Source of the DNA: Candidatus Multivoradales bacterium
GTDB taxonomy: Bacteria; Acidobacteriota; Thermoanaerobaculia; Multivoradales; JAHEKO01
Length of the DNA stretch: 64,000 nt
Direction: 5' to 3'
Assembly: GCA_965223875.1 (NCBI GenBank)
Contig: OZ245024.1
Span: 492,015 to 556,014, forward strand
Each line of letters begins with the position of its first letter. Positions within the stretch are counted from its first letter, which is position 1. The position numbers were made by a program, and so were the translations under genes. A model generated the notes under the pieces. That model worked only from the letters and a program-made list of their open reading frames with translations. It had not been told where the DNA came from and made no database searches. Positions 9,069-60,953 of this stretch are shown here, in pieces.

Positions 9069-9106
9069 CCGGAGAGTCCTCGAGAACCTCGAGAACCTCG
9101 AGAACA

Positions 9107-9897: not shown

Positions 9898-9925
9898 GGC
9901 TGCCTCACCCTTCTCGGTTCTGCTC

Positions 9926-10894: not shown

Positions 10895-11047
10895 CCGCAG
10901 AATGAGAGATTAAACACTAGCATACCGCTGCCTGAACAACGGTGTCCTAGCGCGGCATCATCGGTGGTTGCAAGATGGGCGCCACCCGGCGCGACGGACG
11001 TGACCGGGTGACGCCTGGCTGGGCGAGATGAGGAAACCCAGCCGTTT

Positions 11048-11976: not shown

Positions 11977-12003
11977 GTGGTCCTTTCTGCCCTAGCGGGC
12001 GTG

Positions 12004-15622: not shown

Positions 15623-15879
15623 GCCGCTGAACGCTGGCCCTGGTCGGATGTCGACTGGCAGATACGCTCAGCCGCCCAAGCCTCCAGATCTTCAACGCGA
15701 TAGCGGATAGCGCGCGCCGTCAACCGGCAGTGCGGCGGACCTTCGCCGGTCCTCCGCCAGCCCTCGAGCGTCCGCCTACTTAGCCCGAGATAGCTCGCTG
15801 CCCCCTGTGTATCGAGCAGTCCAACTGGTGCACTTCCCATTCCGCCACTCCCAAATGCCGGAGTTCGTCCCGGCCCCAC
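15619..15879 (-). CDS. alpA: AlpA-family excisionase/transcriptional regulator
   Basis: 'ASYLGLSRRTLEGWRRTGEGPPHCRLTARAIRYRVEDLEAWAAE' fits the AlpA/Xis HTH pattern. It lies upstream of the integrase. Confidence 0.65.
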   Translation of the reverse strand: MGPGRTPAFGSGGMGSAPVGLLDTQGAASYLGLSRRTLEGWRRTGEGPPHCRLTARAIRYRVEDLEAWAAERICQSTSDQGQRSAA

Positions 15880-16074
15880 GGAGAGGGATGTGCCCTACTG
15901 CGTCTGTCAGAGGGGATTGCGTTCCGATTCACACCCATCTCACTCTCCCATCGGTCGCCCCTGCGACCCCACGGAACTGCTGTATTTAGGTAATAGCACG
16001 CAGTCACTGAACCGTCAAGGCCCCTTCGGCGTAGCGAATGTCATCTGCGGGGAATCAATTTCGCTGCTTTCGGC

Positions 16075-16647
16075 TCATGTGCGAAGCCCCGAGATCCCGT
16101 GCCTGGCTGCGTACCGGAAGGCACCGGCGAGGACGTCGTGCGCGTGCTGAGAGTGGCCGATCCTCTCTAGCAGCAGCGCGCCTTCTACCAACAGGTCGAG
16201 TATCGTTTGTGGCGTTGCGACTACGTTGGAGTCCTGGTCCCTGAGCTGGGGCACCAGCAGTATGAGCTCGTGAAGCCGGCGGCGCGCCTCGGCTTGCGCT
16301 GGACGTCCCCGCTGAAGCAGGTCCAGGCGTTGCTCCGCCTCGGACCTCCACGCCTTCCTCTTGCGCCGGAGCTCTCGCTGCAGTTCGAGCTGGTCGACGT
16401 CGAAGAGACTCGCCAGGTGTTTCTGCGTCGCGCAGTGGTACTTGAGCGAGAACTTGTTCGCCGCGTTGGGCTGTATCACGTCGTCACAGCAGGGACGCCG
16501 CTCGCTCTCGCTCGGCCACCAGGCGCCGTCTTCATCGAGGTAGCCATCGGGTGGATTCGGCGCGCTTGACCTCCCGAACTCTCGTTCTCTGTAGGCGGTA
16601 GCGGCCAATCTCAGGCGTTCCTCGGTAGACTTCTCGTGGTTGCGCAT
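16075..16647 (-). CDS. Hypothetical protein
   Basis: 190-aa ORF. Confidence 0.35.
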   Translation of the reverse strand: MRNHEKSTEERLRLAATAYREREFGRSSAPNPPDGYLDEDGAWWPSESERRPCCDDVIQPNAANKFSLKYHCATQKHLASLFDVDQLELQRELRRKRKAWRSEAEQRLDLLQRGRPAQAEARRRLHELILLVPQLRDQDSNVVATPQTILDLLVEGALLLERIGHSQHAHDVLAGAFRYAARHGISGLRT

Positions 16648-16725
16648 CGGGCTTACTCCTTTGCGTGACTCGGCCCGTCCCGGAGTTGCCGCTCCAGGCG
16701 GGCCGTCTTGTGGTTCTCCGTCCGG

Positions 16726-18018
16726 CTAGGGACGGGCTTCTCCTGTTCGTTGTGGGCGGATCGGCACCACCTCCGCTCTTTCCCCGAGCCCCAGCAGCCT
16801 CGCAATCTCACCGGAGATCGCGTCAGCGGCCGGCCTGAGTAGTTCGGGGTCGTCCGTGATGTACCGTTTGGTGATGGCCTTCGCCTGGTGCCCATGGCCG
16901 AGCAGAGCGCCCACCACGCCGGCGTAGCGGCCATCCTGAATATGGGCACCGATCGACGCGAATGAGTGCCTCAGACTATGCAGATCGACACCCCTCTCAA
17001 GCGGTAGGCCGGCCCGCTTCCAGAGGCGCCGGCGCGTGTTGTTGAACGACCGGTATGGCTGCCCCTTGGTTGCTCCCGGAATCACGTAGCTGGCGGGCTT
17101 CGCCCCTTTGGGCTTCGCGGATCGTAAGACGTCGATCGCCGCCTTCCCGATGACTCGCTTCTGCGGCCCGGTCTTCGAGTCCTTCAACGTCACGACGCCG
17201 GCCTTGAGATCCACATCCCGCCACCGGAGTGCATCTCCGCCCCGAGATCGGTGCGCATGGCCAACCACCTCACCACGCCTGAACCCGGTCAGAGCCAGTA
17301 GGCGCACCAGCAGAACGATCCGATCGTTCTCGGTCCGGTGCATCTCCTCCCCTAGCTGCCGCAACTCCTCACGGGTCAGAGCTCGCCGAGATCCCTTCTC
17401 CTCGAATCTCTCGACGTACTTGCAAGGGTTCTCATCGACCAGGCCCTCGGCCTGAGCAAACCGGAAAGCCGCTGAGAGCGCCGTCAGGGTCCGATTCCCT
17501 GCGACCGGGGTGTCGGCCAGCCTGCGATGCGCGCGGCGCACCTGGGCGGCCGTGACGGTCTTGACGGGTAGCTTCCGAATGCTCCCCAACTCGTCCCGGT
17601 GCAGCATCCGGTCAAACTCGAGATAGGTACTCTTCCGGCCCCTCCTCGCTCCCGTCTCGACCCTCCGCTCGAGATCGCCGAGATACAGATCGATCGCCTC
17701 CCCGAGTGTGGTCCCCTCTCGCTTGCGCTCTGCGAGCACTTCTCCAACGTCCTGCCCTTCTGCCTCGATGCCCCTTCGGTCCCGCGCAGCCTTGCGAGCC
17801 TGGTCGAGGGTGATATCGCCGTAGGCATCGATGAAGGTCTCGGCTCGGCGGGGCCCACGCGCCCGGTGCCAGAACTCGACCTGACCTCGTCGCGCCCTGA
17901 CGTAGAGACCTGCCTGTCCACCATCTGCACGCTTGGCCTGGAAACTAGGGTCTGCCTGTGCTTCGCGGCGTAGCTGATCTAGGTCACGCTTGGTCAATGG
18001 TGCGGCACGCTTTGGCAT
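16726..18018 (-). CDS. int: Tyrosine-type site-specific integrase
   Basis: C-terminal catalytic motifs '...HSLRHSFASIGAHIQDGRYAGVVGALLGHGHQAKAITKRYI'. It lies directly downstream of the 3' end of the complete tRNA-Glu. Confidence 0.85.
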   Translation of the reverse strand: MPKRAAPLTKRDLDQLRREAQADPSFQAKRADGGQAGLYVRARRGQVEFWHRARGPRRAETFIDAYGDITLDQARKAARDRRGIEAEGQDVGEVLAERKREGTTLGEAIDLYLGDLERRVETGARRGRKSTYLEFDRMLHRDELGSIRKLPVKTVTAAQVRRAHRRLADTPVAGNRTLTALSAAFRFAQAEGLVDENPCKYVERFEEKGSRRALTREELRQLGEEMHRTENDRIVLLVRLLALTGFRRGEVVGHAHRSRGGDALRWRDVDLKAGVVTLKDSKTGPQKRVIGKAAIDVLRSAKPKGAKPASYVIPGATKGQPYRSFNNTRRRLWKRAGLPLERGVDLHSLRHSFASIGAHIQDGRYAGVVGALLGHGHQAKAITKRYITDDPELLRPAADAISGEIARLLGLGERAEVVPIRPQRTGEARP

Positions 18019-18196
18019 AGCTGGAGTCCTTCGTGGTCCCCATAAGGGTCCCCATAAACGCCCGCGTTGTCAAGTAGTCGAGCGTAGACGACGGTAGGCC
18101 ATGCGGGATAGGGGTCAGAGGTCGACACCTCGAGAAAGCCTGTTAGTGCCTGCCTTTGCCAGGCGTTCCTCCAGCTCGAAAAGGCCCTCTAGAAGG

Positions 18197-18274
18197 TGGT
18201 GTCCCCAACGGGATTCGAACCCGTGTTGCCAGCTTGAAAGGCTGGAGTCCTAGACCTGGCTAGACGATGGGGAC
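18197..18274 (-). tRNA. tRNA-Glu (anticodon UUC)
   Basis: Reverse complement: 'gtccccatcgtctagccaggtctaggactccagcctttcaagctggcaacacgggttcgaatcccgttggggacacca'. The 7-bp acceptor stem is GTCCCCA/TGGGGAC. The anticodon arm is ccagc-CTTTCAA-gctgg. The T-loop is TTCGAAT and a CCA end is present. Confidence 0.9.
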
Positions 18275-30202: not shown

Positions 30203-30272
30203 CTCGTTCCGGAAGCTCCGCCGGCTCGTTCCGGAAGCTCCGCCGGCTCGTTCCGGAAGCTCCGCCGGCTCG
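30203..30272. repeat. 22-bp tandem repeat, 3.2 copies (ctcgttccggaagctccgccgg)
   Basis: Three perfect copies at 30203-30268 plus a partial fourth. It lies between the ClbS stop and the SGNH hydrolase. Confidence 0.9.
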
Positions 30273-31783: not shown

Positions 31784-33623
31784 TTATCGTCTCTCCATCG
31801 TATTGAATGGCATGCTCTACGACCGCGTGGCCGGTGGGTCCGTCGTCGGGAAAACAGGCCGGTCCCGACACGATCACCTCCGGGAAGTGCCCTTCGGCGG
31901 CCTTCTCCTCCAGCATCGCGACCAGGCGCGCCTTGACGACCATCGCTCCGGACATCGGAGTCATCAGCATCGCCAAGACGATGCGATCGTGAGCCGGTTG
32001 GTACACGACGTTGTCGGCCCGCTTGCGGAAGTGGGTCTCGGCCAGCTCGAAGACTCGGCGCACGTCCTTCTCGTTGGGAAAGGCCGAAGGAGTCTTCGTC
32101 TCCACGGAGCCCAGCCGCAGCACCAGGACGGTGAAGAAGCCGGCCTGCGTTCGGTAGTACATGACCTTGGATTCGAAGTCGAGCATCTCGACCGTTCGCG
32201 ACGACAAGGTCGGCAGGCGGAACCAGAAACGGCTTCCCTCCCCGGGCCGGCTGTCGACGTGAATTCGACTGCCGTGGCCCGCCACCAGTTGCTTGACGAT
32301 CGACAAGCCGAGGCCGGCTCCCTTCGTCCCACGGGTCAGATTGTCCCCGACCTGGTAGAAGCGCTCGAAGATCCTCGCCTGGTCGTCGAGCGAGATGCCG
32401 ACGCCGGTGTCCTCGACGGAGATCTCGGCTCCTTTCGGAAGCCGGCGAGCGGACATCGTCACCCACCCGCCTTCCGGGGTGTGTCTCAGGGCATTGTTCA
32501 CCAGGTTCGTCACCACCTGCTCGATCCTTCCGGCGTCGCACCACAGCAGAGCGATCGGATCGTCGCAGCTCACCCGGAGCTCGACCGAGCCCTCCTGCGC
32601 GGCGCTCTCCAGATTGCGCCGGACGAGCTCGAGCAGAGGCGCGATCTCGGTCTCCCGGTAGTCGAACTCCATCCTCCCGGCCTCGATTCTCGACAGATCG
32701 AGCAGGTCCGTGATGATCGCCGTGAGCCGGGCCGTATTGCGCTCGGTCATCGTCACGAAGCGCTCTTGAGCTTCGTTGAGCTCACCGGCCTTCCCGGAGG
32801 CGAGCAGGTCGACGCAGTTCTTGATCGACGCCAGCGGTGTCCGCAGCTCGTGCGACACGATCGAGATGAAATCGGTCTTGGTCTGGCTCACCCGCTTGAG
32901 CTTGAGGTTGGCCGCCTCCAGATCCTTCTCCGCCCGCCGCCGCTCCCTGACCTCGACCTCGAGCCTCCGATTCGACCTCTCCACCTGACGCGCGTGAACG
33001 GCGATGGCGAGCCTCGCCTCCTCGAGACCGGCGGACACCCTCTCCTCCTCCACCGTACGCTGCTTTTCCCGACGCAGTCGCACCACGAAGTAGCCGACGA
33101 AGGCGGCCGCCATCAGCAGGAAGGGGAACCGGATGAGAGTATCGCTGGTCCAGAAGCGAGCGTCGAATCCGCCACCGGCCAGCCAGAAGTAGATCACCGT
33201 ACCGACTCCCGCGGCGAGCACGATGAGGGGCAGGCTCTCACCGAGCGCGGCCAGAAGCAGAACCCCGAAGTACAGAAGAAAGAACTCGCTGCCGAACTCT
33301 CCCGAATAGACCAGGGCGAGGGTCACCAGGGCGATGTCGAGCAGGATCACGCCGCCGATCACCCCGACACCCTCCATTCGGCGCGGCGCGAGCAGCAGCA
33401 GGAGAAGGTTCGACGCCAGGACCGCGACCAGTCCGAGGCTGATCGCCGGAGGCGGTGCGGCGAAATCGCGGGCCACCAGAAGGAGGTACGCAGCCGTGAT
33501 CCAGAAGGCGGATCGGAGCACGACGAAGGTGCGCTGGCGCGGCGAAGAGCCGGGGACCCTGGCCGTCGGAGCCGGAGCCTCGCCCCGCGGCTCTCCGGAG
33601 CTAGGCAACGAACTCACTGTCAT
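31761..33623 (-). CDS. Multi-TM sensor histidine kinase with an extra C-terminal degenerate GGDEF-like domain
   Basis: About 6 N-terminal TM helices. HisKA H-box 'VSHELRTPLASIK'. HATPase_c G-boxes 'DTGVGIS' and 'GAGLGLSIVKQLV'. An extra ~150 aa then follows, resembling GGDEF with the motif replaced ('RADNVVYQPAHDRIVLAML'). Confidence 0.8.
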   Translation of the reverse strand: MTVSSLPSSGEPRGEAPAPTARVPGSSPRQRTFVVLRSAFWITAAYLLLVARDFAAPPPAISLGLVAVLASNLLLLLLAPRRMEGVGVIGGVILLDIALVTLALVYSGEFGSEFFLLYFGVLLLAALGESLPLIVLAAGVGTVIYFWLAGGGFDARFWTSDTLIRFPFLLMAAAFVGYFVVRLRREKQRTVEEERVSAGLEEARLAIAVHARQVERSNRRLEVEVRERRRAEKDLEAANLKLKRVSQTKTDFISIVSHELRTPLASIKNCVDLLASGKAGELNEAQERFVTMTERNTARLTAIITDLLDLSRIEAGRMEFDYRETEIAPLLELVRRNLESAAQEGSVELRVSCDDPIALLWCDAGRIEQVVTNLVNNALRHTPEGGWVTMSARRLPKGAEISVEDTGVGISLDDQARIFERFYQVGDNLTRGTKGAGLGLSIVKQLVAGHGSRIHVDSRPGEGSRFWFRLPTLSSRTVEMLDFESKVMYYRTQAGFFTVLVLRLGSVETKTPSAFPNEKDVRRVFELAETHFRKRADNVVYQPAHDRIVLAMLMTPMSGAMVVKARLVAMLEEKAAEGHFPEVIVSGPACFPDDGPTGHAVVEHAIQYDGETINDDDTSG

Positions 33624-34110
33624 CAGACTCGCACTTCTTCGGGGCCTACGATCCCCCGACCATCCGGAGCCCGGATAGCAATCTTTGAGTCACCGCGACG
33701 CGCTCACCCGGGTCAGACCACAGCCTACGGGGTACCGAGCCTGCTCTCAGTGATGCAGTGGCGGCGTCGACAGCGCGGGCTCGTTCTCGAAGCCCGGCTC
33801 CCGCAGCATCAATGGCGGCGCCGGGGCTGGCCTCGACAATTGCGATCTCTGGACGAGCAGCAGTAGCGGTGAATGGGGAACCGTCGTCACTCTGCGGGCG
33901 GACTGGATCAATGACCCCAATGTCTCCGGGACTCCCTGGCGCGCCACGATCGAGGCCTGTACGGGCGCGCCGGTCTGGTGTGTCGAGGACTGATTCCCGC
34001 GGACCGACCCAGATGATCGTGGAGCGGTCGAACCCGTAGGGCCGACCGCAAGCGGGCCGATGCGATGACCGGAGCCCCGGGCCGGGGCTCGAGAGGATAG
34101 GAGCCGATCC

Positions 34111-35631
34111 TCAGGGAGTCGAGGGAACCGGTACAGCGCCGCTCGTCTCGCAACTGGACGCCGCGAGCGCTTCGAGCCAGCACCGATCGTCCTCGAGGAC
34201 CACAGCGCCGGTGCCCGCCCCCTGAGCGTCCGTCCGCACCCAGATCGGTGGCAGCTGGAAGGGCTCGCCGATCTCGAAGCTCGCGCCGTGGCAGACGACG
34301 CCTCCCTTGACCCAGCCGGTGTTGGTCATCGCCGCCACCACGCCGACCTCGGAGTTCGGCGGCGCGTTGAGGACCGACACCGTGACCGGTCCCGGGCAAG
34401 TGCCGCTGGCCGACAGATGGAGGCTCGGACCGACGTAGCGTTGGCCGAAGACGCCGACGGAGTCCCCGTCCTGGACGTAGCTCCCCCACACCACCACGAA
34501 GTCCCCGTCCGCACTCGACGCCACATCGGGACGGAACTGGGTGTAGGTCGTGTAGCTGTTGACCTGGAACGCCGTGGTCAGGGGCGTCCCGTCCGGCGCG
34601 TACTGGCGAGCGAAGATATCGCTGTAGCTCGCCACCGGACCGTCGTCGGCCCACGCCACGACGAAGGCGCCGGTCGCATCGGAGGCCACCGCGGGCTCGA
34701 TGCCGGACGGGCTGACGAGAAACTCGATGCCCAGCGGCTGGCCGGAGGCGTCGAAGCGCTGCCCGGCGATGCCGGGAGCGCCCGACCACACGACGACGAA
34801 GTTCCCGCCCGGATCCATCGCCACGACCTGCCCACGCTCGGAGCTCCCTGTGTTCGTGTTGACGGCGAACTCGCCGCCCCTCGGCACTCCGGCCACGTCG
34901 TAGAGCTGCCCGAAAACGCCGCCCTTCTCGCCGTCCTGCTCGTAGCTCTCCCAGACGACGACGAAGTTCCCGCTGGCGTCGGCCGCCGCCACGGGGTACC
35001 TCTGGTAGTCCGTCGTATAGGTGTTGACCTGGAACTCACCGCCCAGCAGAGCCCCGGAAGCATCGTAGAGCTGGCCGAAGACCCCGGTATCGCTACCGTC
35101 CTGCTCGTCGCTGGTCCAGACGACGACCGTGTTCCCGTTGCCTCCGACGGCGGCTTCGGGCTTTATCTGCAGCTCGGGCGTGTAACTGTTCACCAGGAAC
35201 TCGCCGTCGAGAACAGTCCCCGCAGCGTCGAACTGCTTACCGATGATCTCGCGATCGCCGGGTAGCGCCGACCAGGCCCACTCCCAGTAAACGGCGAAGT
35301 TTCCCGCCGCGCCCATGACGACATCGGAGAACCACTGTTCCCCGTCCTGCTGCCGGTTGACGCGGAACTCGTCGCCCAACCGGTTTCCCGCGACGTCGTA
35401 CCGCTGGCTGAACACACCGTCGTCGTCGTCGTCGGGGCCGTGCCAGACGACGACGAACTCTCCCCGCCCGTTCATCGCCACCGCCGGCGTGTACTGGCGG
35501 CCGCTGGTCGTGGTGTTGACCTGGAACTCACCCCCGATCGGCTGCTGGGCCGCCAACCGAGCCACCGGGATCAAGCAACCCACCAGGGAGAGGTGGACTA
35601 CCACCGCGATACAAATCGATCCGAGCCGCAA
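34111..35631 (-). CDS. Secreted protein with about 9 tandem ~48-aa repeats and a C-terminal PPC-like domain
   Basis: Signal peptide. The repeat consensus is 'GEFQVNTYTTxxQxxPxVAxxxxGNFVVVWxSxxQDGxxxGVFGQRYD'. The C-terminal ~100 aa ('TCPGPVTVSVLNAPPNSEV...') are shared with the metzincin at 39532-41016. Confidence 0.6.
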   Translation of the reverse strand: MRLGSICIAVVVHLSLVGCLIPVARLAAQQPIGGEFQVNTTTSGRQYTPAVAMNGRGEFVVVWHGPDDDDDGVFSQRYDVAGNRLGDEFRVNRQQDGEQWFSDVVMGAAGNFAVYWEWAWSALPGDREIIGKQFDAAGTVLDGEFLVNSYTPELQIKPEAAVGGNGNTVVVWTSDEQDGSDTGVFGQLYDASGALLGGEFQVNTYTTDYQRYPVAAADASGNFVVVWESYEQDGEKGGVFGQLYDVAGVPRGGEFAVNTNTGSSERGQVVAMDPGGNFVVVWSGAPGIAGQRFDASGQPLGIEFLVSPSGIEPAVASDATGAFVVAWADDGPVASYSDIFARQYAPDGTPLTTAFQVNSYTTYTQFRPDVASSADGDFVVVWGSYVQDGDSVGVFGQRYVGPSLHLSASGTCPGPVTVSVLNAPPNSEVGVVAAMTNTGWVKGGVVCHGASFEIGEPFQLPPIWVRTDAQGAGTGAVVLEDDRCWLEALAASSCETSGAVPVPSTP

Positions 35632-35876
35632 GACTCCCCTTCAAACGACAAACAGTTCAGCGGACACCACACTCGCCTCCCGGAACAAGCCGGTACCCGC
35701 TACAACTGTACACGAGGCACGAAAGTGCAACGGTCAAAGTATCTGGTATTCCGGCTTCGCCGTCCAGACCATCAGCATAGTAGCGACCCTCCAGTCATCG
35801 TCAAAGGGGATCCAGGCACTATCCTGGTTGGGTCGTGCTTTTCCACACTTCTGACCAAGCCAACCGAAAGAAGGCA

Positions 35877-36728
35877 ATGTACAACGGAAACGGAACGATC
35901 GCAGTCCGAAGCATCGAAGAGTTTGTGTCGCTAATTGCTATCCACCGGCAGTTCAAGCTCGGGCGGGGCGAGCCTCGCGCTTACGAGAAGGGTTGCTATC
36001 CGTCGGTCTGGCGCAAGGGACATCGATTTGCCGACCGGACGCCAGTTCGAACAGGGAGCAGCTTCACTCGTGGAGAGCTCGAGGCCTTGAAGGCCTGCGA
36101 GAGAGACTTCCAGGATGGGAACCTGGACGACCGGTTTATCCGCCGGCTCGAGAACCTACCGGCGGTCGAGGACTGCATCGACACCGAGGACCTCCTGGTC
36201 TGGGCGGCTCTCGCTCAGCATTACAACGATGAGATGCAGTATCCGACCCGTCTGCTCGACCTGACCTCAGATCCTCTCGTTGCATTGTTCTTCGCTGTCT
36301 GTTCGCAGCCAGACGAGAACGGCTTCGTTTTTGCTTTTCATGGGAACTACAACCGGCTCTTCGAAGCAGCCCGCCGGGAACCTCCTGGCCAGTGCTTCGA
36401 CATCACGTTGTTCTGGAACGAACAGGGCCATAAGTTCACACTGAATGCAAACACGGTCATGGTCTTCGAGCCGAGCTTTCCGAACCAGAGGCTAGCTGTT
36501 CAGCGAGGGCACTTCGGATTCACTAGGGGAATCGACCAGCATCTAATGAATCTCAGCCCATTGATCTACGAGATCCCCTACGAGAGAAAGGAGAGCATCG
36601 TCCAGGCCCTCGAGGGACTGAACGTCAGTGAGGAATGGCTCTTCCCTAAGACGACTTGGCAGCCAGCACGTCCATCGCGGCTAAGACATCGTCGTCGGTC
36701 GGGTGTACATAGCGCATCGTCGTTGTGA
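35877..36728 (+). CDS. FRG-domain protein (defence-island associated family)
   Basis: 'ALAQHYNDEMQYPTRLLDLTSDPLVALFFAV' matches the FRG-domain core as I remember it. The DNA is noticeably less GC-rich locally. It lies next to a decayed integrase and tRNA-Lys. Confidence 0.5.
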   Translation: MYNGNGTIAVRSIEEFVSLIAIHRQFKLGRGEPRAYEKGCYPSVWRKGHRFADRTPVRTGSSFTRGELEALKACERDFQDGNLDDRFIRRLENLPAVEDCIDTEDLLVWAALAQHYNDEMQYPTRLLDLTSDPLVALFFAVCSQPDENGFVFAFHGNYNRLFEAARREPPGQCFDITLFWNEQGHKFTLNANTVMVFEPSFPNQRLAVQRGHFGFTRGIDQHLMNLSPLIYEIPYERKESIVQALEGLNVSEEWLFPKTTWQPARPSRLRHRRRSGVHSASSL

Positions 36729-37640
36729 TGCTCGAGTGACCGAGGATCTTCTGCAGTACTGGCACCGGAATGCGACGGGCGAGATCAGTCGCCACCGAAT
36801 GTCGAATGTCATGAATTCGAGCAGGCCGCCCTTCGCCATCAGAAAGGTCGAGATCCTGGACCAGCCTGCGCCAGGCCCTGTCGATATTGACCAGGTGCTT
36901 GCCCGGTATGGCGCCCGGGAACACACACGGTCCCTGACGTGGTGCCAAGCGCAGCACCTCGACCGCCTCTTTTGAGAGTGGGATCTTGCGCTGACCGGTC
37001 TTGCCGTCCACCTTCACCCAGCGCCCCTCCATATCGACGTCGGTCCATCGCATCGAGAGGACCTCCGACTTGCGGGCCCGGTCAGGAGAAGCAACTGGAT
37101 TGCCAGGCTAGCGCCAGGCGAGAAAGCTCCAGCAGTGATCTCTTGGCGGGCGCGGTCCCGATCACCTGGAGACAGGTAGGTCTCTCTCCTCACCTCCTTG
37201 AATCGCTTAACGCTCTTCGTTGGCTTCAACGTGGGGTCAGATAGGCCATGCCGCTCGGCGACGGTGAACAAACGCGATAAGAGCGATAGCGCTCGGTTCG
37301 CGTTGGCCTCACCGGTCGCCTTTCCAAGACGCTGATGCCAGATCGTCACGTCACTGTGGCGAACAGCTGTCGCCTTCAGCTTGCCGAAAGTAGGGGCGAT
37401 CCCATTGAAGTCTTGGGCGCTCTTACGAGCCTGGGAAACCGTCCGAGTAGGAAACCTTCCAAGCGTGACCTTGTACTGGCGCCCGTCACGCCGGTACTTA
37501 TAGGTGAACGATTTTGATCCGCTGGGCGTGATCCGCAGGCCGAAATGCGGTGTCAGGGTTTCCCAGATGACGTATTCAGAAGGCTGCGCTCTTGCAGATA
37601 TGGCTACTGACTTGGTCAGTCGCTTCTTTATGGTACCGCT
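36646..37640 (-). pseudogene. P4-like tyrosine integrase, frameshifted and lacking a start codon
   Basis: Three frames carry consecutive integrase parts. The arm-binding N-terminus (37350-37640) is 'RLTKSVAISARAQPSEYVIWETLTPHFGLRITPSGSKSFTYKYRRDGRQYKVTLGRFP'. The core-binding region is 37014-37349. The catalytic C-terminus (36646-37053) ends '...HDIRHSVATDLARR...LGHSSITTTMRYVH'. Confidence 0.7.
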
Positions 37641-37766
37641 ATGGCACCAAGCCTAGGACATTCAGAGCATATTCGGGGTACGTTCCCGGCATAACAGGAC
37701 CTCCTGAAGAAGGCCCTAAGAACCAGCGAAAACCTAGGATCTACTTGCCGCAAAGGAGTATTCTGA

Positions 37767-37844
37767 TGGTGGGCCGTGAGGGAATCGAACCCCCGACCAT
37801 CAGATTAAAAGTCTGCAGCTCTACCAACTGAGCTAACGGCCCAC
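37767..37844 (-). tRNA. tRNA-Lys (anticodon UUU)
   Basis: The reverse complement 'gtgggccgttagctcagttggtagagctgcagacttttaatctgatggtcgggggttcgattccctcacggcccacca' is highly similar to E. coli tRNA-Lys. The anticodon loop is CTTTTAA. Confidence 0.9.
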
Positions 37845-38019: not shown

Positions 38020-38050
38020 CCTACGGCCGGCAGGGGCGCCGGCCGCTTCA
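38020..38050. repeat. Solo partial copy of the 87-bp palindromic repeat family
   Basis: 'acggccggcaggggcgccggccgcttcag' matches the unit core found at 41630-41882 and 43367-43677. Confidence 0.6.
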
Positions 38051-38065
38051 GGACCCTGACTGTCT

Positions 38066-39349
38066 CTACAGGCGGTTTGAGGTCAGGGTCTGGAAGACGG
38101 TGTCGCGGCGGATGCAGGTCTCTTCACGGCGGGGGCCGGTGGAGACGATGCTGACCGGGGCTCGCAGGGCGTGCTCGATGTACTGGACGTACTGCTGGGC
38201 GGCGGTCGGGAGCTCCTCGAAAGACGTCGCGGCGACGGTGTCGGTCTGCCAGCCGGGTAGGGTCTCGTAGACCGGCTCGGCGCGGGCCAGGGCGGCGAGA
38301 TCGGCGGGGAACTGCCGGGTCTCCTCGCCGTCGATCCGGTAGGCGACGCAGACGGGGATCTCCTCGAGGGTGTCGAGGACGTCCATCTTGGTCAGGGCGA
38401 TCGACGAGATGCCGTTGACGCGGCGCGCGTATCCGGCGGCCACGAGGTCGAGCCAGCCGCAGCGTCGCGGACGCCCGGTGGTGGTGCCGAACTCGGTGCC
38501 CCGCCCACGGATGAAGTCGCCCAGCTCCCCCAGCAGCTCGGTCGGGAACGGTCCCTCCCCCACCCGGCTGGTGTAGGCCTTGAGGACCCCGATGACGCCA
38601 TCGATCATCGCCGGCGGGACGCCGGAGCCGGTGCAGGCGCCTCCAGAGGTCGAGCTCGAGCTGGTGACGAACGGGTAGGTTCCATGGTCGATATCGAGCA
38701 ACGCGCCCTGGGCACCCTCAAAGAGGATCGAGCGGCCCTCGTCGAGCCAATCGTGCAGGAGGTAGGTCGTATCGGTGACCAGCGGCTCGAGACGGTCGCG
38801 CCACTCGCGGCACAGCTCGGCCATCACCTGGGCGTCTTCGGGCCGCTCCAGTGCACGCGTCAGGGCACCGATGCGCCGGTCGAGGTCCTCCGACCAGAGA
38901 TCGCAGAAGCGAACACCCTCACGTGACACCTTGGTCTGATAGGCGGGTCCGATGCCCCGGGCCGTGGTTCCGATTTTGTCGTCACCGCGGGCCGCTTCGA
39001 GAGTTTCGTCGCGCTGCATGTGGACCGGCAGGAGGACCTGGGCCCGGTCGGAGATGAACAGGCGTCCTTCCGGCTCGATGCCCATCTCGATCAGGCCGTC
39101 GAGCTCCTCGAAGAGAGCTCCGGCGTGAATGACCATGCCGTTGCCGAGAACGCAGGTCATTCCCTCGTGCAGGATGCCCGAAGGCACCAGATGGAGGGCG
39201 TAGTGGCGATCCTCGAACTTGACCGTATGGCCGGCGTTGTTGCCACCCTGGTAGCGAACCACGCCGTCGAAGGCCGGGCAGAGCAGATCGACGATCTTTC
39301 CCTTGCCCTCGTCGCCCCACTGCATGCCGACGATGACTGTGCTGGCCAT
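38066..39349 (-). CDS. purA: Adenylosuccinate synthetase
   Basis: 'MASTVIVGMQWGDEGKGKIVDLL...GGNNAGHTV...' is a canonical PurA. Start is the ATG at 39347-39349. The 843-aa ORF in the track is an upstream read-through artefact. Confidence 0.9.
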   Translation of the reverse strand: MASTVIVGMQWGDEGKGKIVDLLCPAFDGVVRYQGGNNAGHTVKFEDRHYALHLVPSGILHEGMTCVLGNGMVIHAGALFEELDGLIEMGIEPEGRLFISDRAQVLLPVHMQRDETLEAARGDDKIGTTARGIGPAYQTKVSREGVRFCDLWSEDLDRRIGALTRALERPEDAQVMAELCREWRDRLEPLVTDTTYLLHDWLDEGRSILFEGAQGALLDIDHGTYPFVTSSSSTSGGACTGSGVPPAMIDGVIGVLKAYTSRVGEGPFPTELLGELGDFIRGRGTEFGTTTGRPRRCGWLDLVAAGYARRVNGISSIALTKMDVLDTLEEIPVCVAYRIDGEETRQFPADLAALARAEPVYETLPGWQTDTVAATSFEELPTAAQQYVQYIEHALRAPVSIVSTGPRREETCIRRDTVFQTLTSNRL

Positions 39350-41291: not shown

Positions 41292-41546
41292 ATGACCCAC
41301 ATCATCGCCGAGCCTTGTGTGGGCACGAAGGACACTGCCTGCGTGGACGTATGTCCGGTCGACTGCATCTACGGGAAGGATGAGGATTGGGAGATCCTGT
41401 ACATCCATCCGGAAGAGTGCATCGATTGCGGACTGTGTATCGACGCGTGCCCGGTCGAGGCTATCTTTCCGGAAGAGGAAGTGCCCGAGCAGTGGCATGG
41501 CTGGATCGCCAAGAACTACGAGCACTTCGGCTTTACGGCTCCCTGA
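41292..41546 (+). CDS. fdxA: 7Fe (FdxA-type) ferredoxin
   Basis: Cys clusters 'CVDVCPVDC' and 'CIDCGLCIDACP' with overall similarity to Azotobacter FdI. 84 aa. Confidence 0.85.
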   Translation: MTHIIAEPCVGTKDTACVDVCPVDCIYGKDEDWEILYIHPEECIDCGLCIDACPVEAIFPEEEVPEQWHGWIAKNYEHFGFTAP

Positions 41547-41629
41547 GCGATCGAATCAGCGAACGAGAAAGAGGGACGCGCCGTTCGGCGCGTCCTTTTT
41601 TCATGGGCGCACGGACGGCCCCGCATCGC

Positions 41630-41882
41630 CTGAAGCGGCCAGCACCTCTGCCGGCCGTCGGTGGTCGACGGGGACAACGGCCGGCACGGGGGCCGGCCGC
41701 TTCAGTCGAGGTTGTTCTGAAGCGGCCGGCGTCTCTGCCGGCCGTCGGTGGTCGATGGGGACAACGGCCGGCACGGAGACCGGCCGCTTCAGTCGAGGTT
41801 GTTCTGAAGCGGCCGGCGTCTCTGCCGGCCGTCGGTGGTCGATGGGCACAACGGCCGGCACGGAGGCCGGCCGCTTCAGTCA
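41630..41882. repeat. Array 1 of the 87-bp structured palindromic repeat (about 3 tandem units)
   Basis: Unit 'ctgaagcggccggcgtctctgccggccgtcggtggtcgatggggacaacggccggcacggagaccggccgcttcagtcgaggttgtt'. The period is 87 bp (unit starts 41630, 41717, 41804). Each unit folds into a long imperfect hairpin: ctgaagcggccgg/ccggccgcttcag outside, tgccggccgt/acggccggca inside. Confidence 0.85.
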
Positions 41883-41901
41883 GGGAGTACGATCGGGTGG
41901 C

Positions 41902-43287
41902 TCAGTGAACCAGGTGCCACTCGGTCTGGCGCCCCGCCAGATACCAGACTGTCTCGCCGTCGTAGATCGCGCTCTGCTCGAGCTTGATCCGGACCAGATC
42001 GCCGTCCCACTCCGGCACCGGAGCCGCGATGTTGCCCTCGATGGCGTAGCCCGTGCCCGGATAGAGCGGCCAGTCGCCACGCACCGGTGTCGGGCCCTGG
42101 TTGTCCCACATGCCGATGGTCGGGCCGGGAGCGTGGCCGAATGCGCCCAGCGGATGCGTGTAGGTGCTCGAGACGATGCCCTCGGCCTCGGCGTCGGCGA
42201 TGGTCGCGGCGAGGATCTCGTTGCCGGTCCGTCCGGTGACGAAGTTGCCGGTCAGCAGATCCTGCCAGCGGTTCCCGATCGCCAGCGCCCGGCGCAGTCC
42301 CTCGGGAGCCTCGGTCTCCCCCATACGTAGCACGTAGCCCATCTCCTGGGTGTCGGTGCAGAGCCTCAGGTAGCAGACGCCCACATCGGTGTGCAGCACG
42401 TCGCCACGCTGGATCACGGTACTGCTGTCGCCGCAGAAGGGACTCTCGAGCGTGCAGTCCATACCCGGACGCTGGACGTTCACGCTGGGCATGAACCAGG
42501 CCGCGAGATCGAGATCGGCGAAGCGCTGGCGGATGTACCAGGCGACGTCCTCGGTCGTCGTCGCGCCGGGCGTGATGACGCGCTCGGAGAAGGCCTCCGC
42601 GATCACTCCCCGTGCCAGACCGACGATGTGCGGGTAGACCTCGAGCTCGGCCGCGGAGCGGGTCTCCATCCAGCGGACCACGAGCTCCTCGGCGCTCACC
42701 AGGCGCCCCTGGAGCTCGGCGGGCAGCACTTCGATCAACCGGTCGCGCAAAGCCGCCGTCAGTCCGTCCGCCACCGGCCAATGCCGGCTGACGTTGATGC
42801 CGATCGACTTCGGATCGCGCTCGGCGATGACGTCCGCCAGAGCCGCCCACTGCTCGTCGAGGTCACCACCCTTCCAGGCGCTCTCGTAGAGCTGCCCATA
42901 GGGATACCGGTTCACCGTCAGGCGCTCGACGCCCTTCTCCTCGCCGCGATCGAAGAAGACCAGCATCGTGGTCCGCCGCGCCGCGAAGACCGGCTCGGGG
43001 GCCAGCGAGAAGAAGACCGGGTCCTCGGCGTACTCGCGGTTGACCACCACCCACATGTCGAGGCCGACTTCGCGCATGAGACGCGGCAGCAGGGTGTCGA
43101 GGCGCTGCTTCAGGATTCGGTTGGTCGGCTCGACGCGCGCGCGCTGTGAAAGCACGGCTCCCGGAGCCCACACAACCCTTCCTTGATCCGCGCCCTCCTC
43201 GGCCGCCAGGGGCCTTGGCGCCAGGCCGGTCACCGGGATCACACCGAGAGCGACAACGAGTACCACCACGGACACCACACGCATCAT
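41902..43287 (-). CDS. Secreted M24 family metallopeptidase (Xaa-Pro/creatinase-like)
   Basis: Signal peptide 'MMRVVSVVVLVVALGVIPVTGLA'. M24 pita-bread fold segments 'HTDVGVCYL...', 'HPLGAFGHAPGP' and 'YAIEGNI'. Confidence 0.7.
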   Translation of the reverse strand: MMRVVSVVVLVVALGVIPVTGLAPRPLAAEEGADQGRVVWAPGAVLSQRARVEPTNRILKQRLDTLLPRLMREVGLDMWVVVNREYAEDPVFFSLAPEPVFAARRTTMLVFFDRGEEKGVERLTVNRYPYGQLYESAWKGGDLDEQWAALADVIAERDPKSIGINVSRHWPVADGLTAALRDRLIEVLPAELQGRLVSAEELVVRWMETRSAAELEVYPHIVGLARGVIAEAFSERVITPGATTTEDVAWYIRQRFADLDLAAWFMPSVNVQRPGMDCTLESPFCGDSSTVIQRGDVLHTDVGVCYLRLCTDTQEMGYVLRMGETEAPEGLRRALAIGNRWQDLLTGNFVTGRTGNEILAATIADAEAEGIVSSTYTHPLGAFGHAPGPTIGMWDNQGPTPVRGDWPLYPGTGYAIEGNIAAPVPEWDGDLVRIKLEQSAIYDGETVWYLAGRQTEWHLVH

Positions 43288-43366
43288 CCGAACCCTCCTC
43301 AGATTGTTTCGGACGGCGAGCCTACACCAGGACGTGCGCGACCGGCAGGTGGGGCCAGGCATGGCG

Positions 43367-43677
43367 TGCCGGCCGTTGTCCCCGTCGATCACCGACGGCC
43401 GGCAGAGACGCCGGCCGCTTCAGAAAGTCCTCGGCTGAGGTGGCCGGTCTCCGAGCCGGCCGTTGGCCCCGTCGATCACTGACGGCCGGCAGGGACGCCG
43501 GCCGCTTCAGAGGACCCTCGGCTGGGGTGGCCGGTCTCCGTGCCGGCCGTTGTCCCCGTCGATCGCCGACGGCCGGCAGAGGCGCCGGCCGCTTCAGAGA
43601 GTCCTCGACTGAAGCGGCCGGCCACCGTGCCGGCCGTTGTCCCCATCGACCACCGACGGCCGGCAGGGGCCTACTGC
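43367..43677. repeat. Array 2 of the 87-bp palindromic repeat (about 3.6 units, inverted relative to array 1)
   Basis: The units are the reverse complement of the array-1 unit ('gccggccgttgtccccgtcgatcaccgacggccggcagagacgccggccgcttcag' plus a 31-bp linker). It lies upstream of the M24 gene and at the end of mltF. Confidence 0.85.
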
Positions 43678-45074
43678 CCGAGCGTGGCGCTCGAGACGAG
43701 GATGCCCGGAGGGATGCCGCGGCTGCGCGAGAACGACTCCTCGAGTAGTTTTCGGTAGCCGCGAATTCGCTCGACGAAGATGACCGGCTCGTTGCCCCGG
43801 GCGTACCCGTGGCGCAGCTCCCGGTAGTACCTGGGTTGCGACAACAGCGGCAGAACCTCGCGCATGTCGTCCCAGGAGTCGGGATCCTTGCCCAGCTCGG
43901 CCGCCAGTCCCCGGGCGTCCCGCAGGTGGCCGTATCCGACGTTGTAGGCGGCCAGGGCGAGGGAGATCCGATCGGCTTCCGAGACCGAGTCCGGCATCCG
44001 GTCGATCAGTCCTTTCAGGTACCTGGCGCCACCGAGGATGCTCTCGTACGGGTCGAGTCGGTCGACGCCGAGCTCCATCGCGGTCGACGTGGTCAGCATC
44101 ATCAAGCCACGCACTCCGGTACCGCTCACCGCGCGCGGGTCCCAGTGCGACTCCTGGTAGGCGACCGCCGCCAGCAGTCTCCAGTCGACGCCGGTGGCCT
44201 CGTCGACGTCCTGGAACAGACCCTCGAAGATCGGCAGGCGGCTCTCGACGCGGCGGAAGAAGACCGTGTGGTCGTAGCGCTCCACATCGCGAGGGCGCCA
44301 GTAGTAGCGGTTGAGCAGGCTCTGCAGGCGTCCACTGCGGCGCATGGCATCGAACCACGCCTCGAGCGGCTCGGCGAGGTCGCGCGAGCTCTCGGCGACG
44401 AACCAGGCCAGGTGCTCCCCGTCACCGAGGGCGAACGGAGAGCGCAGCTCCGGCAGGAGGCCGCGGCTCATCGCGACGATGTTCGAGTCGGCGACCGTAC
44501 AGTCCACTCGTCCCTCCGCCACCGCCATCAGGAGCTGCTCGGTCGACTCCTTGGCCGTCGAGGTCCACTCGAGTCGAGACTCGACCTGACGCAGGCCGGC
44601 CAGGGTCTCCTGATAGCTCGAGTCGGCGATCACCCGGATCGCGGTGCCGACCAGGTCGCCGAGATCGCGTACACCGGCATTCGGATGACAGACGAGCTGC
44701 TCCTCGATCTCCTGATACTCGGGCCCGATGAGAAACGCGGCGGCCCGTTCATCCGTCCGGGTCAGTCCGGCGGCGGCCAGGTCGACCCGCTCCTGATCCA
44801 CCGCGTCGAGGATCTCGCCGATCCCGTCCATGACGACGAACTCGACCTCGAGTCCAAGCTCGTCGGCGAATTCGCGGACCAGCTCGTACTCGAGTCCGGC
44901 CAGCTGCCCCTCGCGGTCCTCGTAGTAGGTCGTCGGCGAGTTTCGGGTCGCGACCGTGAGGGTCGTCCGGGGCTCAGGCGATCGCGCGCAGGCGCCGAAC
45001 AGGAGCGCACCCGTCATCATGGCCGCGCAACCGCGCAGCGACACCAGTCGCTCGAATGGAGATCCAGAGCTCAT
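43671..45074 (-). CDS. mltF: Membrane-bound lytic murein transglycosylase F
   Basis: N-terminal periplasmic-binding (SBP_bac_3-like) domain plus a C-terminal SLT domain 'AVAYQESHWDPRAVSGTGVRGLMML'. Confidence 0.8.
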   Translation of the reverse strand: MSSGSPFERLVSLRGCAAMMTGALLFGACARSPEPRTTLTVATRNSPTTYYEDREGQLAGLEYELVREFADELGLEVEFVVMDGIGEILDAVDQERVDLAAAGLTRTDERAAAFLIGPEYQEIEEQLVCHPNAGVRDLGDLVGTAIRVIADSSYQETLAGLRQVESRLEWTSTAKESTEQLLMAVAEGRVDCTVADSNIVAMSRGLLPELRSPFALGDGEHLAWFVAESSRDLAEPLEAWFDAMRRSGRLQSLLNRYYWRPRDVERYDHTVFFRRVESRLPIFEGLFQDVDEATGVDWRLLAAVAYQESHWDPRAVSGTGVRGLMMLTTSTAMELGVDRLDPYESILGGARYLKGLIDRMPDSVSEADRISLALAAYNVGYGHLRDARGLAAELGKDPDSWDDMREVLPLLSQPRYYRELRHGYARGNEPVIFVERIRGYRKLLEESFSRSRGIPPGILVSSATLGQ

Positions 45075-50282: not shown

Positions 50283-50366
50283 GGCCTCCTACCGCGGGCC
50301 TCCTACCGCGGGCCTCCTACCGCGGGCCTCCTACCGCGGGCCTCCTACTGCGGGCCTCCTACCGCG
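50283..50366. repeat. 14-bp tandem repeat x6 (ggcctcctaccgcg)
   Basis: Six consecutive units. The fifth has a C-to-T variant. It lies in the convergent intergenic region after the SSS gene. Confidence 0.9.
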
Positions 50367-60405: not shown

Positions 60406-60953
60406 CCCTCCACCTCTCGGTCGCCGTTCGCGATGGACCTCTTCGCGGGGGGCTCCTTCGCGGGGGACTCCTTCGCGGGGGGCACGGTAGCGGGGGGCAC
60501 CGTCGCTTCGGGCCCGTCCGCCCCGAGGCCCCGAAAGATCGCCTCGTAGCCGGTGCACCGGCAGAGATTCCCGGCGAGAGCCCGCTTGAGATCCTCGCGT
60601 CCGGGCGCCGCCTCGCGCTGGCCGAGCGCCCAGGCGGTGACGACGATCCCGGGCGTACAGGCGCCGCACTGGACACCGCCCGCGGCGACGAATCGATCGA
60701 CCAGAGAGGCGTCCATCGCCGCGATGCCCTCGACGGTGGTGATGCTCCGCCCACGACACTGAACCAGCGGCACGAGGCAGGAGAGGACGGGCTCTCCATC
60801 GAGCAGCACGGTGCACGCCCCGCACTCGCCTTCACCGCACCCCTCCTTGGTACCGGTGGCCCCGATGCACTCGCGAAGGACGTCCAGCAGGCGGTCCATC
60901 GCCTCGCCTTCGAGCTCACGGCGCTCTCCGTTGAGCTCGACCTCAACGCGCAT
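60402..60953 (-). CDS. Xanthine dehydrogenase family (2Fe-2S)-binding small subunit with Pro-rich C-terminal tail
   Basis: 'GCGEGECGACTV' and 'CGACTPG...CRCTGY' are the two [2Fe-2S] motifs. The tail reads 'TVPPATVPPAKESPAKEPPAK'. Confidence 0.8.
   Translation of the reverse strand: MRVEVELNGERRELEGEAMDRLLDVLRECIGATGTKEGCGEGECGACTVLLDGEPVLSCLVPLVQCRGRSITTVEGIAAMDASLVDRFVAAGGVQCGACTPGIVVTAWALGQREAAPGREDLKRALAGNLCRCTGYEAIFRGLGADGPEATVPPATVPPAKESPAKEPPAKRSIANGDREVEG

Follow-up and report, generated by a model that had tools for sequence, protein, structure and literature searches.

The window analysed here is a 64,000-nucleotide (64-kb) stretch of DNA from a Candidatus Multivoradales bacterium, in which a gene for an M24-family peptidase is bracketed by two arrays of a probable repetitive extragenic palindrome (REP). 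The features of the locus, in window coordinates, are as follows.

38023..38051, plus strand: solo REP singlet, ACGGCCGGCAGGGGCGCCGGCCGCTTCAG (53.2 bits with the covariance model)
41292..41546, plus strand: fdxA-like ferredoxin gene (Pfam Fer4 families), convergent with the M24 gene
41574..41603, plus strand: intrinsic terminator of fdxA, GGACGCGCC-GTTC-GGCGCGTCC followed by T6; the minus strand is also terminator-like
41630..41879, plus strand: array 1 (Tandem Repeats Finder; regular-expression and covariance-model matches of 47-55 bits; folds)
41902..43287, minus strand: M24-family peptidase gene (Pfam Peptidase_M24, E = 7.7e-8), with a signal-peptide-like N-terminus, bracketed by the arrays
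43365..43670, minus strand: array 2, the 87-bp unit of array 1 on the minus strand (Tandem Repeats Finder, covariance model, alignment with L090)
43671..45074, minus strand: MltF-like gene (Pfam SBP_bac_3 and SLT)

The M24 protein has 6437 homologues and is called an M24 metallopeptidase in metagenome-assembled genomes (MAGs) of Thermoanaerobaculia. Exact-protein look-ups returned no record for the M24 and MltF-like proteins of the window, and found the fdxA protein identical in L090 and L091, two of the loci compared below. Array 1 is inserted between the fdxA terminator and the M24 gene, with 22 nt between its end and the M24 stop codon (41902). On the upstream side of the gene, 77 nt separate the M24 start (43287) from the near end of array 2, whose far end abuts the MltF-like gene. 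The TAG stop codon of the MltF-like gene (43671-43673) and the base of the first array 2 hairpin are 2 nt apart; in L090 the distance from stop codon to hairpin is 17 nt. A preliminary description of this DNA had the arrays flanking the M24 gene exactly; with gaps of this size they do not. The solo REP stands 14 nt downstream of the purA stop codon (38066-38068; purA is on the minus strand), upstream of a tRNA-Lys gene, and is kept in L090 at 4502-4536. This copy, which had been taken for a partial unit, is real; it is a complete single arm, itself a hairpin, and not a decayed unit. It shows that the family is dispersed, as had been proposed.

Tandem Repeats Finder located array 1 at 41630-41881 (period 87, 2.9 copies, 95% matches) and array 2 at 43365-43666 (period 87, 3.5 copies, 87% matches), and in a repeat search of the window the two were mutual inverted repeats over 242 nt, 87% complementary. 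The two arrays of 87-bp units first described as reverse complements of each other are therefore real. The basic element, however, is shorter than the 87-bp unit: a 29-nt palindrome, A-CGGCCGGC-N6-GCCGGCCG-CTTCAG, with an 8-bp G+C stem, a 6-nt loop and a CTTCAG tag. It has the character of a REP, an imperfect palindrome of 20-40 nt whose stem-loop is rich in G+C. Two loop subtypes, AGRGRC and ACGGRG, together make up about 54 of the 58 parsed copies. The doublet of this lineage consists of one REP of each subtype, in opposite orientation and separated by an 18-nt spacer, giving a 76-nt, REPIN-like hairpin. Chance would give 0.47 occurrences of a core motif in the window; there are 12. The arrays are composed as follows.

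Array 1, layout: three complete REP doublets, that is six 29-nt REPs of alternating orientation
Array 1, REPs: 41630-41658 minus, 41677-41705 plus, 41717-41745 minus (regular expression, covariance model)
Array 1, remaining REPs: 41764-41792 plus, 41804-41832 minus, 41851-41879 plus (regular expression, covariance model)
Array 1, 18-nt spacer within each doublet: CGGTGGTCGAYGGGSACA
Array 1, 11-nt linker joining doublets: TCGAGGTTGTT
Array 2, first part: half REP at 43656-43670 (abutting the MltF-like stop codon), spacer, REP, linker
Array 2, remainder: two full units with the ACCYCAG variant, then REP, spacer and a half REP at 43365-43376
Array 2, full REPs: 43395-43423 plus, 43435-43463 minus, 43482-43510 plus
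Array 2, remaining full REPs: 43522-43550 minus, 43569-43597 plus, 43609-43637 minus

Both arrays follow the same pattern (subtype A inverted, 18 nt, subtype B direct, 11 nt), repeated. REPs of two subtypes alternate at regular spacing, with alternating linkers and in tandem copies, which is the layout of a BIME-2. Because the arms are palindromic, the inverted orientation of the arrays can be read only from the asymmetric 18-nt spacer and 11-nt linker, and both of these agree with inversion of array 2 relative to array 1. Both types of interval are conserved between units and not unique, so that a CRISPR array was rejected, as it had been at the outset; the best Rfam CRISPR-DR match scored 27.9 bits against a threshold of 39.

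The nested palindrome claimed for the unit was recovered by folding, with a 13-bp outer stem, a 3-bp stem and a 10-bp inner stem. The predicted RNA fold of the unit has an energy of -56 to -58 kcal/mol (z = -5.8 to -8.4), and the 76-nt doublet, which is present with its spacer in both arrays, folds at -56 kcal/mol. As DNA the unit folds at about -33 kcal/mol. The phase of the 87-bp unit is arbitrary, since an arm/18-nt/arm and an arm/11-nt/arm unit fold equally well as DNA (-33.1 and -33.4 kcal/mol), and each arm is a hairpin by itself (-13.3 kcal/mol for a REP singlet). Whole-array z-scores were -10 for array 1 and -4.6 for array 2. Two array 2 units carry uncompensated changes of GCTTCAG to ACCYCAG, and their fold is clearly worse. 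Over 67 distinct REP copies 98% of stem cells were paired, and a covariation test gave three compensatory cells. The stem is nearly invariant, so this test has little power and the covariation support is thin; the test is also biased by the pattern used to scan the genome collection, which fixed most stem bases. Searches of Rfam at gathering and permissive thresholds returned only tRNAs and sub-threshold matches to generic hairpins (miRNA precursors). Every strong copy carried the tag CTTCAG/CTGAAG, and none had GTAG or CGTC, the tags by which most of the REP families described so far are marked (PMC3733652).

To reconstruct the history of the locus, the window was compared with its relatives. 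L090, with about 95-97% nucleotide identity to the window, has both arrays and the M24 gene in unchanged orientation. The two differ by a 46-nt internal gap in array 1, and array 2 has 1.6 units in L090 against 3.5 in the window, with the end units unchanged. The two extra array 2 units share private variants, and units within one array are more alike than orthologous positions across the window and L090. Copies are thus uniform within the locus and differ in number between strains, as in BIME-2. The 46-nt gap breaks the reading frame, and together with the difference of about two units it confirms that the long open reading frames across the arrays are artefacts. L091 (M24 gene 86% identical) and L092 (79%) retain synteny and the fdxA terminator and have no arrays; in these empty sites the terminator lies directly between fdxA and the M24 stop codon. 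The conserved mltF-M24-fdxA order in the two array-less loci indicates that the M24 gene is native to the site and that the arrays came later. As the arrays are kept with altered copy number in L090 and missing from the syntenic L091 and L092, they are recent insertions amplified in place. The composite-transposon-like architecture that had been suggested is not supported, the M24 gene being in place at array-less loci. An integron cassette, in which attC sites would flank the gene, was likewise rejected: the arrays are mutually inverted and multi-copy, and the M24 gene is syntenic without them.

At least eight Thermoanaerobaculia MAGs contain the 29-mer, which stands singly, in doublets or in mosaics; across genomes, single arms are the most frequent. 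In L017 three successive intergenic regions each have a 135-nt doublet, the three being 76-91% identical from end to end, and L083 has an alternating REP triplet with linkers of 9 nt and 20 nt. Mosaics of the CTTCAG-tagged REP with a second, GTAG-type REP, which is absent from the window, were present in L037, L061 and L071. The pattern for the genome-collection scan was loose, and many of its matches are chance occurrences or unrelated families (Gaiella, other Actinomycetota); among the matches listed there were 2-5 REP loci per Thermoanaerobaculia MAG. Counted in the window alone, the family comprises three loci and 13 full REPs in 64 kb; REPs typically exceed 100 copies per genome (PMC2817692). 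In 80 M24-orthologue loci (about 573 kb), an unbiased sample of relatives, a REP copy was found only in L164. The viral contigs and plasmids searched contained no REP match and no related insertion sequence (IS).

All REP copies in the window are intergenic, and all three sites lie 2-22 nt 3′ of a stop codon. Across genomes, 38 of 46 REP loci fell outside high-GC3 open reading frames, compared with 33% of random positions (by a crude gene model), and 17 of the 46 (37%) lay no more than 40 nt after a stop codon, compared with 2% of random positions. In at least 4-5 loci the CTGAAG tag itself supplies the TGA stop codon. The preliminary description would have failed had the unit proved to be a known REP family in hundreds of copies, lacking positional bias and showing no structural variation at this locus. 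That holds only in part: the family is of the REP type, but it has both a bias, towards positions just after stop codons, and variation, in copy number.

A REP-associated tyrosine transposase (RAYT) was sought in the window by tblastn, with E. coli RAYT, IS608, IS200 and a generic RAYT-like sequence as queries, and with a motif regular expression; the generic sequence and the motif were approximate and yield leads only. None of these searches found a RAYT encoded in the 64 kb. In L087 a RayT-like gene, confirmed by Pfam and NCBIfam, lies 175 nt from a REP pair. Its paralogues and orthologues are without CTTCAG-tagged REPs, and ten other loci (homologues P0123, P0134 and P0132) have no REP in their 3-kb flanks and a different flanking repeat. 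A weak match to a RAYT probe in L019 was spurious, and the open reading frames between the REP doublets of L017 are AbiEii, a TonB-like protein and a sigma factor, with no transposase among them.

Taken together, these observations make it probable that the two arrays are BIME-like clusters formed by an extragenic palindrome of the REP type, which is spread through Thermoanaerobaculia (Acidobacteriota). Of the resemblances first proposed, that to BIME/REP mosaics is the best explanation, with its alternating REPs and two linkers. On this reading the hairpin blocks are an ordinary selfish-repeat feature of the REP/BIME type, and no new system. The comparison of strains shows that the doublet and its 11-nt linker reached both intergenic regions flanking the M24 gene after the split from the array-less relatives, and that the blocks later grew, shrank and were homogenised where they stood. 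These changes would likely have come about by replication slippage or by unequal recombination between the near-identical palindromic cores. The original dispersal was probably the work of a single-strand (HUH/Y1-type) transposase acting on the hairpin. The arrays may be chiefly DNA that is selfish or neutral and is tolerated immediately 3′ of genes. In the MltF-like and M24 transcripts their hairpins would fall within the 3′ untranslated region, where they could block 3′ exonucleases, and a hairpin beginning 2 nt past a stop codon could hinder the terminating ribosome. By analogy with E. coli REP/BIME, they might also offer binding sites for proteins or gyrase; a BIME-2 is marked, among other things, by the binding of DNA gyrase, IHF or Pol I.

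Effects of this kind would be primary if the arrays were cis-acting RNA structures selected at the locus, serving as terminator, insulator or stabiliser of the MltF-like and M24 mRNAs, and not a selfish repeat. The hairpins are very stable, as the whole-array z-scores indicate, all copies are just 3′ of genes, and array 2 separates mltF from the region upstream of M24. However, close relatives lack arrays at the same locus, copy number is unequal between strains as similar as the window and L090, and the stem mutations in two units are uncompensated. Moreover, the hairpins have no following U-tract, a canonical terminator is already there, and Rfam offers no match. We therefore regard selection for a cis-acting RNA as unlikely; it is compatible with the BIME-like explanation if the effect is secondary.

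The tag, which is neither GTAG nor CGTC, the near base-for-base conservation across the class and the lack of a RAYT that can be linked to the family leave room for another possibility: the REP could be propagated or maintained by a partner that has so far escaped recognition, be it a host factor or a different single-strand endonuclease. The strong preference for the first few nucleotides after stop codons could reflect a targeting rule, or a role in translation termination or mRNA 3′-end formation. In a weaker variant of this reading, the inverted arrays around the M24 gene would exchange sequence and now and then invert it. We consider this reading decidedly doubtful.

The inverted arrays might also serve as sites of recombination, through which the M24 gene is flipped or is mobilised as a composite element; an invertible segment had been suggested at first. 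The arrays offer 242 nt of 87% inverted homology 1.5 kb apart, and unit W2.1 has a core identical to that of a unit in the other array, W1.2, but different from that of its L090 orthologue, which hints at exchange between arrays. Yet array-bearing L090 and array-less L091 and L092 agree in the order and orientation of mltF-M24-fdxA; as L090 is the only other array-bearing strain, its unchanged M24 orientation is a single comparison, compatible with a rare inversion. No recombinase gene adjoins the arrays in the Pfam annotation of the window. Since the bracket also encloses the putative M24 promoter, a region of 77 nt that is conserved in L090 and L091, inversion would bring no obvious switch in expression. 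An invertible or mobilisable segment is thus very improbable.

There is equally little to be said for a MITE, a 76-nt unit with 29-nt terminal inverted repeats moved by the DDE transposase of some IS: the perfect-looking terminal repeats, a size typical of small MITEs and the recurrence of conserved-spacer doublets at separate sites in L017 speak for it, but single arms are the commonest form, every arm is a hairpin and combines with spacers of 9, 18, 20 and 43 nt, no flanking direct duplication is visible at the ends of the arrays or the solo copy, and the plasmids and viral contigs searched yielded no related IS. Besides terminal inverted repeats, a MITE would have target-site duplications and derive from an IS; neither was seen here.

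The BIME-like arrays extend the REP/BIME/REPIN phenomenon to Thermoanaerobaculia, a class of Acidobacteriota known almost only from metagenome bins. Empty site, short array and longer array form a natural series for the birth and change of a cluster at one locus. The arrays break short-read assemblies, and many M24-bearing contigs are only 1.7-4 kb long; they also give rise to spurious open reading frames, and could serve as VNTR-like markers for strain typing.

MIRUs are not known to be palindromic, and have small open reading frames that overlap the neighbouring stop and start codons. The arrays resemble them as tandem intergenic repeats of 40-100 bp inside gene clusters, variable between strains, with a period (87) that is a multiple of three. 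In contrast to MIRUs, the units here are hairpins, 77 nt separate array 2 from the M24 start, and array 1 differs between the strains by 46 nt; a MIRU was rejected on anatomy and synteny. REP and BIME repeats have long been known from E. coli and Pseudomonas. REPs of the GTAG/CGTC superfamilies (Di Nocera et al. 2013; including SMAG of Stenotrophomonas) are short G+C-rich stem-loops with a short end tag, found as singletons, head-head and tail-tail dimers, and clusters with tandemly reiterated dimers (PMC3733652). The Thermoanaerobaculia family shares the stem-loop, the tag and the dimer and cluster forms, although its tag is neither GTAG nor CGTC, and a GTAG-type REP co-occurs with it in the Ca. 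Multivoradales mosaics. In P. fluorescens SBW25, REP doublets form one long hairpin, and clusters consist of tandem near-identical doublets with flanking sequence (PMC3116915). These REPIN clusters and the arrays are alike in their long-hairpin doublets and ordered tandem repeats. Every REPIN group of SBW25 goes with a RAYT gene that has REPINs of the group on its flanks, whereas no such gene was found here, and the doublet spacers here vary between genomes (18, 20 and 43 nt). In E. coli, tandem BIME-2 copies are well conserved within a single locus, and strains differ in how many they carry (PMC3333891). Their sequences are unrelated to those described here, the tag is GTAG there and CTTCAG here, the host phylum differs, and the stem here is fully paired, without the mismatch needed by E. 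coli TnpA-REP. BIME-2, with its y and z2 REPs, nevertheless has in common with the arrays the alternating REP subtypes, the two types of linker, the extragenic location at gene 3′ ends, and tandem copies that are homogeneous within a locus and vary in number between strains.

Tandem Repeats Finder located array 1 at 41630-41881 of the window (period 87, 2.9 copies, 95% matches) and array 2 at 43365-43666 (period 87, 3.5 copies, 87% matches). A repeat search of the window found them to be mutually inverted over 242 nt (87% complementary), confirming the pair of inverted 87-bp-period arrays near the M24 peptidase gene in the preliminary description. Twelve occurrences of a core motif were counted across the window, where chance would give 0.47. 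The nested hairpin proposed for the 87-bp unit agrees with its predicted RNA fold (-56 to -58 kcal/mol, z = -5.8 to -8.4); the DNA fold has -33 kcal/mol, and two units carry uncompensated stem mutations. The gene context of the arrays, and other near-perfect tandem repeats reported by Tandem Repeats Finder, are as follows.

37767-37842, minus strand, tRNA-Lys
ending at 38066, minus strand, purA
41292-41546, plus strand, fdxA-like ferredoxin gene
41574-41603, canonical intrinsic terminator of fdxA
41902-43287, minus strand, M24 peptidase gene
43671-45074, minus strand, MltF-like gene (SBP_bac_3+SLT)
30203-30272, tandem repeat, 22 nt x 3.2, 100% identical
50283-50366, tandem repeat, 14 nt x 6, 97%
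60441-60506, tandem repeat, 15 nt x 4.4

The space between the fdxA terminator and M24 holds array 1, which comes to within 22 nt of the M24 stop codon. Array 2 abuts the mltF-like stop codon, and a 77-nt stretch separates it from the M24 start. The arrays do occupy both intergenic regions adjoining M24, but with gaps of 22 nt and 77 nt the earlier statement that they flank the gene exactly is loose.

The 76-nt hairpin has two 29-nt arms, each a palindrome in its own right, A-CGGCCGGC-N6-GCCGGCCG-CTTCAG. The solo copy after purA (38023-38051) is real, and is one complete arm rather than the partial copy first described. Arm loops fall into two subtypes, AGRGRC and ACGGRG, which strictly alternate along the arrays in opposite orientations; the intervals between them are alternately an 18-nt spacer and an 11-nt linker. 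An arm can pair as well with the neighbour on its left as with the one on its right (DNA fold, -33.1 versus -33.4 kcal/mol), so that the phase assigned to the 87-bp unit is arbitrary. Three full doublets make up array 1, and array 2 has half arms at both ends.

An exact-protein look-up recorded the fdxA protein on two further contigs, L090 and L091. The DNA of L090, a closely related strain, is 95-97% identical to the window over positions 37.8-52 kb. Its genes run in the same order and direction, and it too carries the two arrays and the solo REP. Relative to the window, its array 1 has a 46-nt internal gap that joins two REP cores, and its array 2 has 1.6 units versus 3.5, with the terminal half arms unchanged. 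In the relative L091 (M24 86% identical) fdxA, the terminator and M24 are present without an array, and only 18 nt separate the terminator T-tract from the M24 stop codon. Upstream of M24 this contig breaks off in another repeat, 41 nt long (1779-1856; GTCATCTCGASCGGAGGYGAGCGYAGCGAACCG, 1.9 copies); thus the same intergenic region attracts other repeats. In L092 (M24 79% identical) the order mltF-M24-fdxA is kept, the intergenic regions are short, and arrays are missing. A further 80 loci with M24 orthologues, from metagenomes and together about 573 kb, showed no tandem array beside M24; REP copies were confined to one of them, L164, where one copy is a palindrome 13 nt past the M24 stop codon. 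These comparisons establish array insertion and copy-number change at the M24 locus. Units within one window array are more alike than orthologous units of the window and L090, two extra units of array 2 have private variants in common, and the core of one array 2 unit is identical to that of one array 1 unit. We read this as recent insertion, after which tandem expansion, contraction and homogenisation took place on the spot, probably through slippage or unequal recombination between palindromic cores.

The preliminary description also raised an invertible segment, in which the arrays would flip the M24 gene. That the arrays are inverted relative to each other is seen from the asymmetric spacer and linker, which both agree on it. 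M24 has the same orientation in L090, the only comparable strain, and we reject this reading except as a possible rare event. The composite transposon or cassette likewise fell away, as synteny (mltF-M24-fdxA) is conserved in array-less relatives. A MITE was rejected (single arms predominate, and no target duplication was seen), as were a MIRU (the units are hairpins with out-of-frame indels), a CRISPR (the intervals between repeats are conserved, as already noted), a known RNA family (no Rfam match) and a plasmid or phage element (no match among plasmids or viral contigs).

Other features were also seen in the window. A probable integrative element (9077-18274) lies at tRNA-Glu(ttc) (18197-18274), with a tyrosine integrase gene (16726-18018, minus strand); the 3' part of the tRNA recurs as an 81-nt direct repeat (9077-9157, 85% identical to 18167-18247). 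Upstream lie five further copies of a 45-80-nt repeat with the motif GGTGTCCCCAAC (29-111, 736-779, 2590-2670, 3221-3303 and 7183-7265), as if they were stacked att remnants. Synteny with L090 ends at tRNA-Lys (window about 33500-37800 versus L090 1-4280); beyond it the window has an FRG-domain gene (35835-36728) at the place taken in L090 by a TIR_2 gene, which looks like a variable island.

NCBI names of M24 protein homologues point to Thermoanaerobaculia and Acidobacteriota MAGs. A pattern scan of one genome per species, with a pattern that proved too loose, found the same REP in at least eight Thermoanaerobaculia MAGs among the matches listed. Among these matches, about 54 of 58 parsed copies from other genomes had the same two loop subtypes, as counted from the eight positions that the pattern left free. 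The commonest form elsewhere is the singlet. One locus (L083) has an alternating triplet with linkers of 9 nt and 20 nt, and at another (L017) each of three consecutive intergenic regions holds a 135-nt doublet, one of them beside an AbiEii toxin gene. In a Ca. Multivoradales MAG (L037 3990-4150; L061 2850-2900; L071 3045-3225; L083 6560-6700) the CTTCAG REP occurs in mosaics with a second REP, of GTAG type (GTAGGGGCGGGGCTTGCCCCCGCCC), which the window lacks. The scan pattern also met, by chance, an unrelated dispersed repeat, GGCCGGCCGCGYCAGCGGCCGCTTCAGGGNTTTYCCCGAGCCGGGAKCCGCG, in Gaiella and Gaiellales MAGs (L010, L011, L013, L021, L022, L030, L035, L044, L046, L059, L060 and L082). A separate tandem array (107 bp, 4 copies) was seen in an Actinomycetes MAG (L007 5505-5852).

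The covariance model of the REP singlet, R1, recovered 69 copies at E <= 1e-4 among the sequences collected. The stem is 98% paired with only three compensatory cells; covariation adds little because the stem is nearly invariant and the scan pattern fixed most stem bases. When loci were placed with a crude GC3-based gene model, 38 of 46 lay outside ORFs, against 33% of random positions, and 17 of 46 lay within 40 nt after a stop codon, against 2%. At four loci in this model (L019 2422-2449; L004 1506-1533; L029 596-623; L045 1994-2021) the TGA of the CTGAAG tag is the in-frame stop of the upstream gene. The ORF call bears this out at L019, where a dipeptidase-like ORF (2446-3738, minus strand) terminates in the tag.

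On minus-strand transcripts array 1 follows M24 as its 3' flank, and array 2 comes directly 3' of the mltF-like gene, its hairpin base 2 nt past the TAG. Inspection of the sequence found no U-tract after the array hairpins, and fdxA is already served by its bidirectional-looking canonical terminator. By analogy with E. coli REPs (PMC3333891, PMC3733652), the hairpins could plausibly protect against 3' exonucleases, or bind proteins or gyrase. They could also plausibly interfere with translation termination, a stop-codon effect of E. coli REPs that Liang, Rudd and Deutscher reportedly described. We argue that the arrays are not maintained for a locus-specific function, since close relatives lack them, their copy number varies and two of their units have uncompensated stem mutations.

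No Y1/HUH gene was found in the window. On another contig, L087, a 310-aa RayT-like gene (4733-5665) lies 175 nt from a REP pair; its product scores 24.8 bits against Pfam Y1_Tnp (cut-off 23) and 46.5 bits against NCBIfam REP_Tyr_transpos, under the model cut-off of 80. Two paralogues from the same MAG are among its homologues (72-78% identity). The 3-kb flanks of these homologues contain no CTTCAG REP, having instead inverted arrays of 13-15-nt GAGGTGTC repeats, and the proximity in L087 therefore gives no real support. This RayT-like (Y1/HUH) family of Thermoanaerobaculia (L087 4733-5665; L172, L173 and L174-L181, at 3001-3933 in most) is represented by three or more paralogues in one MAG. 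In L087, L172, L173 and L174, the four copies with flanks examined, the gene lies between inverted arrays of 13-15-nt tandem repeats, unlike classical REP flanks: upstream (C)GAGGTGTC x about 5-8, ending in GAGGTGTCAGGGAC, and downstream GTCCTTGACACCTC, then GACACCTCCTCCCG x about 5-12.

Published REPs are 20-40 nt long and clustered as inverted pairs with linkers between. E. coli BIME-2 has two REP types as constituents (PMC3333891), and in BIMEs REPs are regularly spaced with alternating orientation (PMC2817692). REPINs are hairpin-forming REP doublets, whose ordered clusters consist of near-identical REPINs and flanking sequence in tandem (PMC3116915); tandem reiteration of dimers is also described for large REP clusters (PMC3733652). 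The arrays match these descriptions point for point, and the suggested resemblance to BIME/REP mosaics holds in the alternating subtypes, the two linkers and the tandem copies varying between strains. The family differs from described REPs in carrying a CTTCAG tag instead of GTAG or CGTC and in its fully paired stem, and a search of the window and the L087 homologues found no cognate transposase. A literature search found no papers on REPs in Thermoanaerobaculia, and as far as we could find the family is previously undescribed. The two arrays are genuine and resemble BIMEs or REPIN clusters, which makes them a feature of an ordinary sort.
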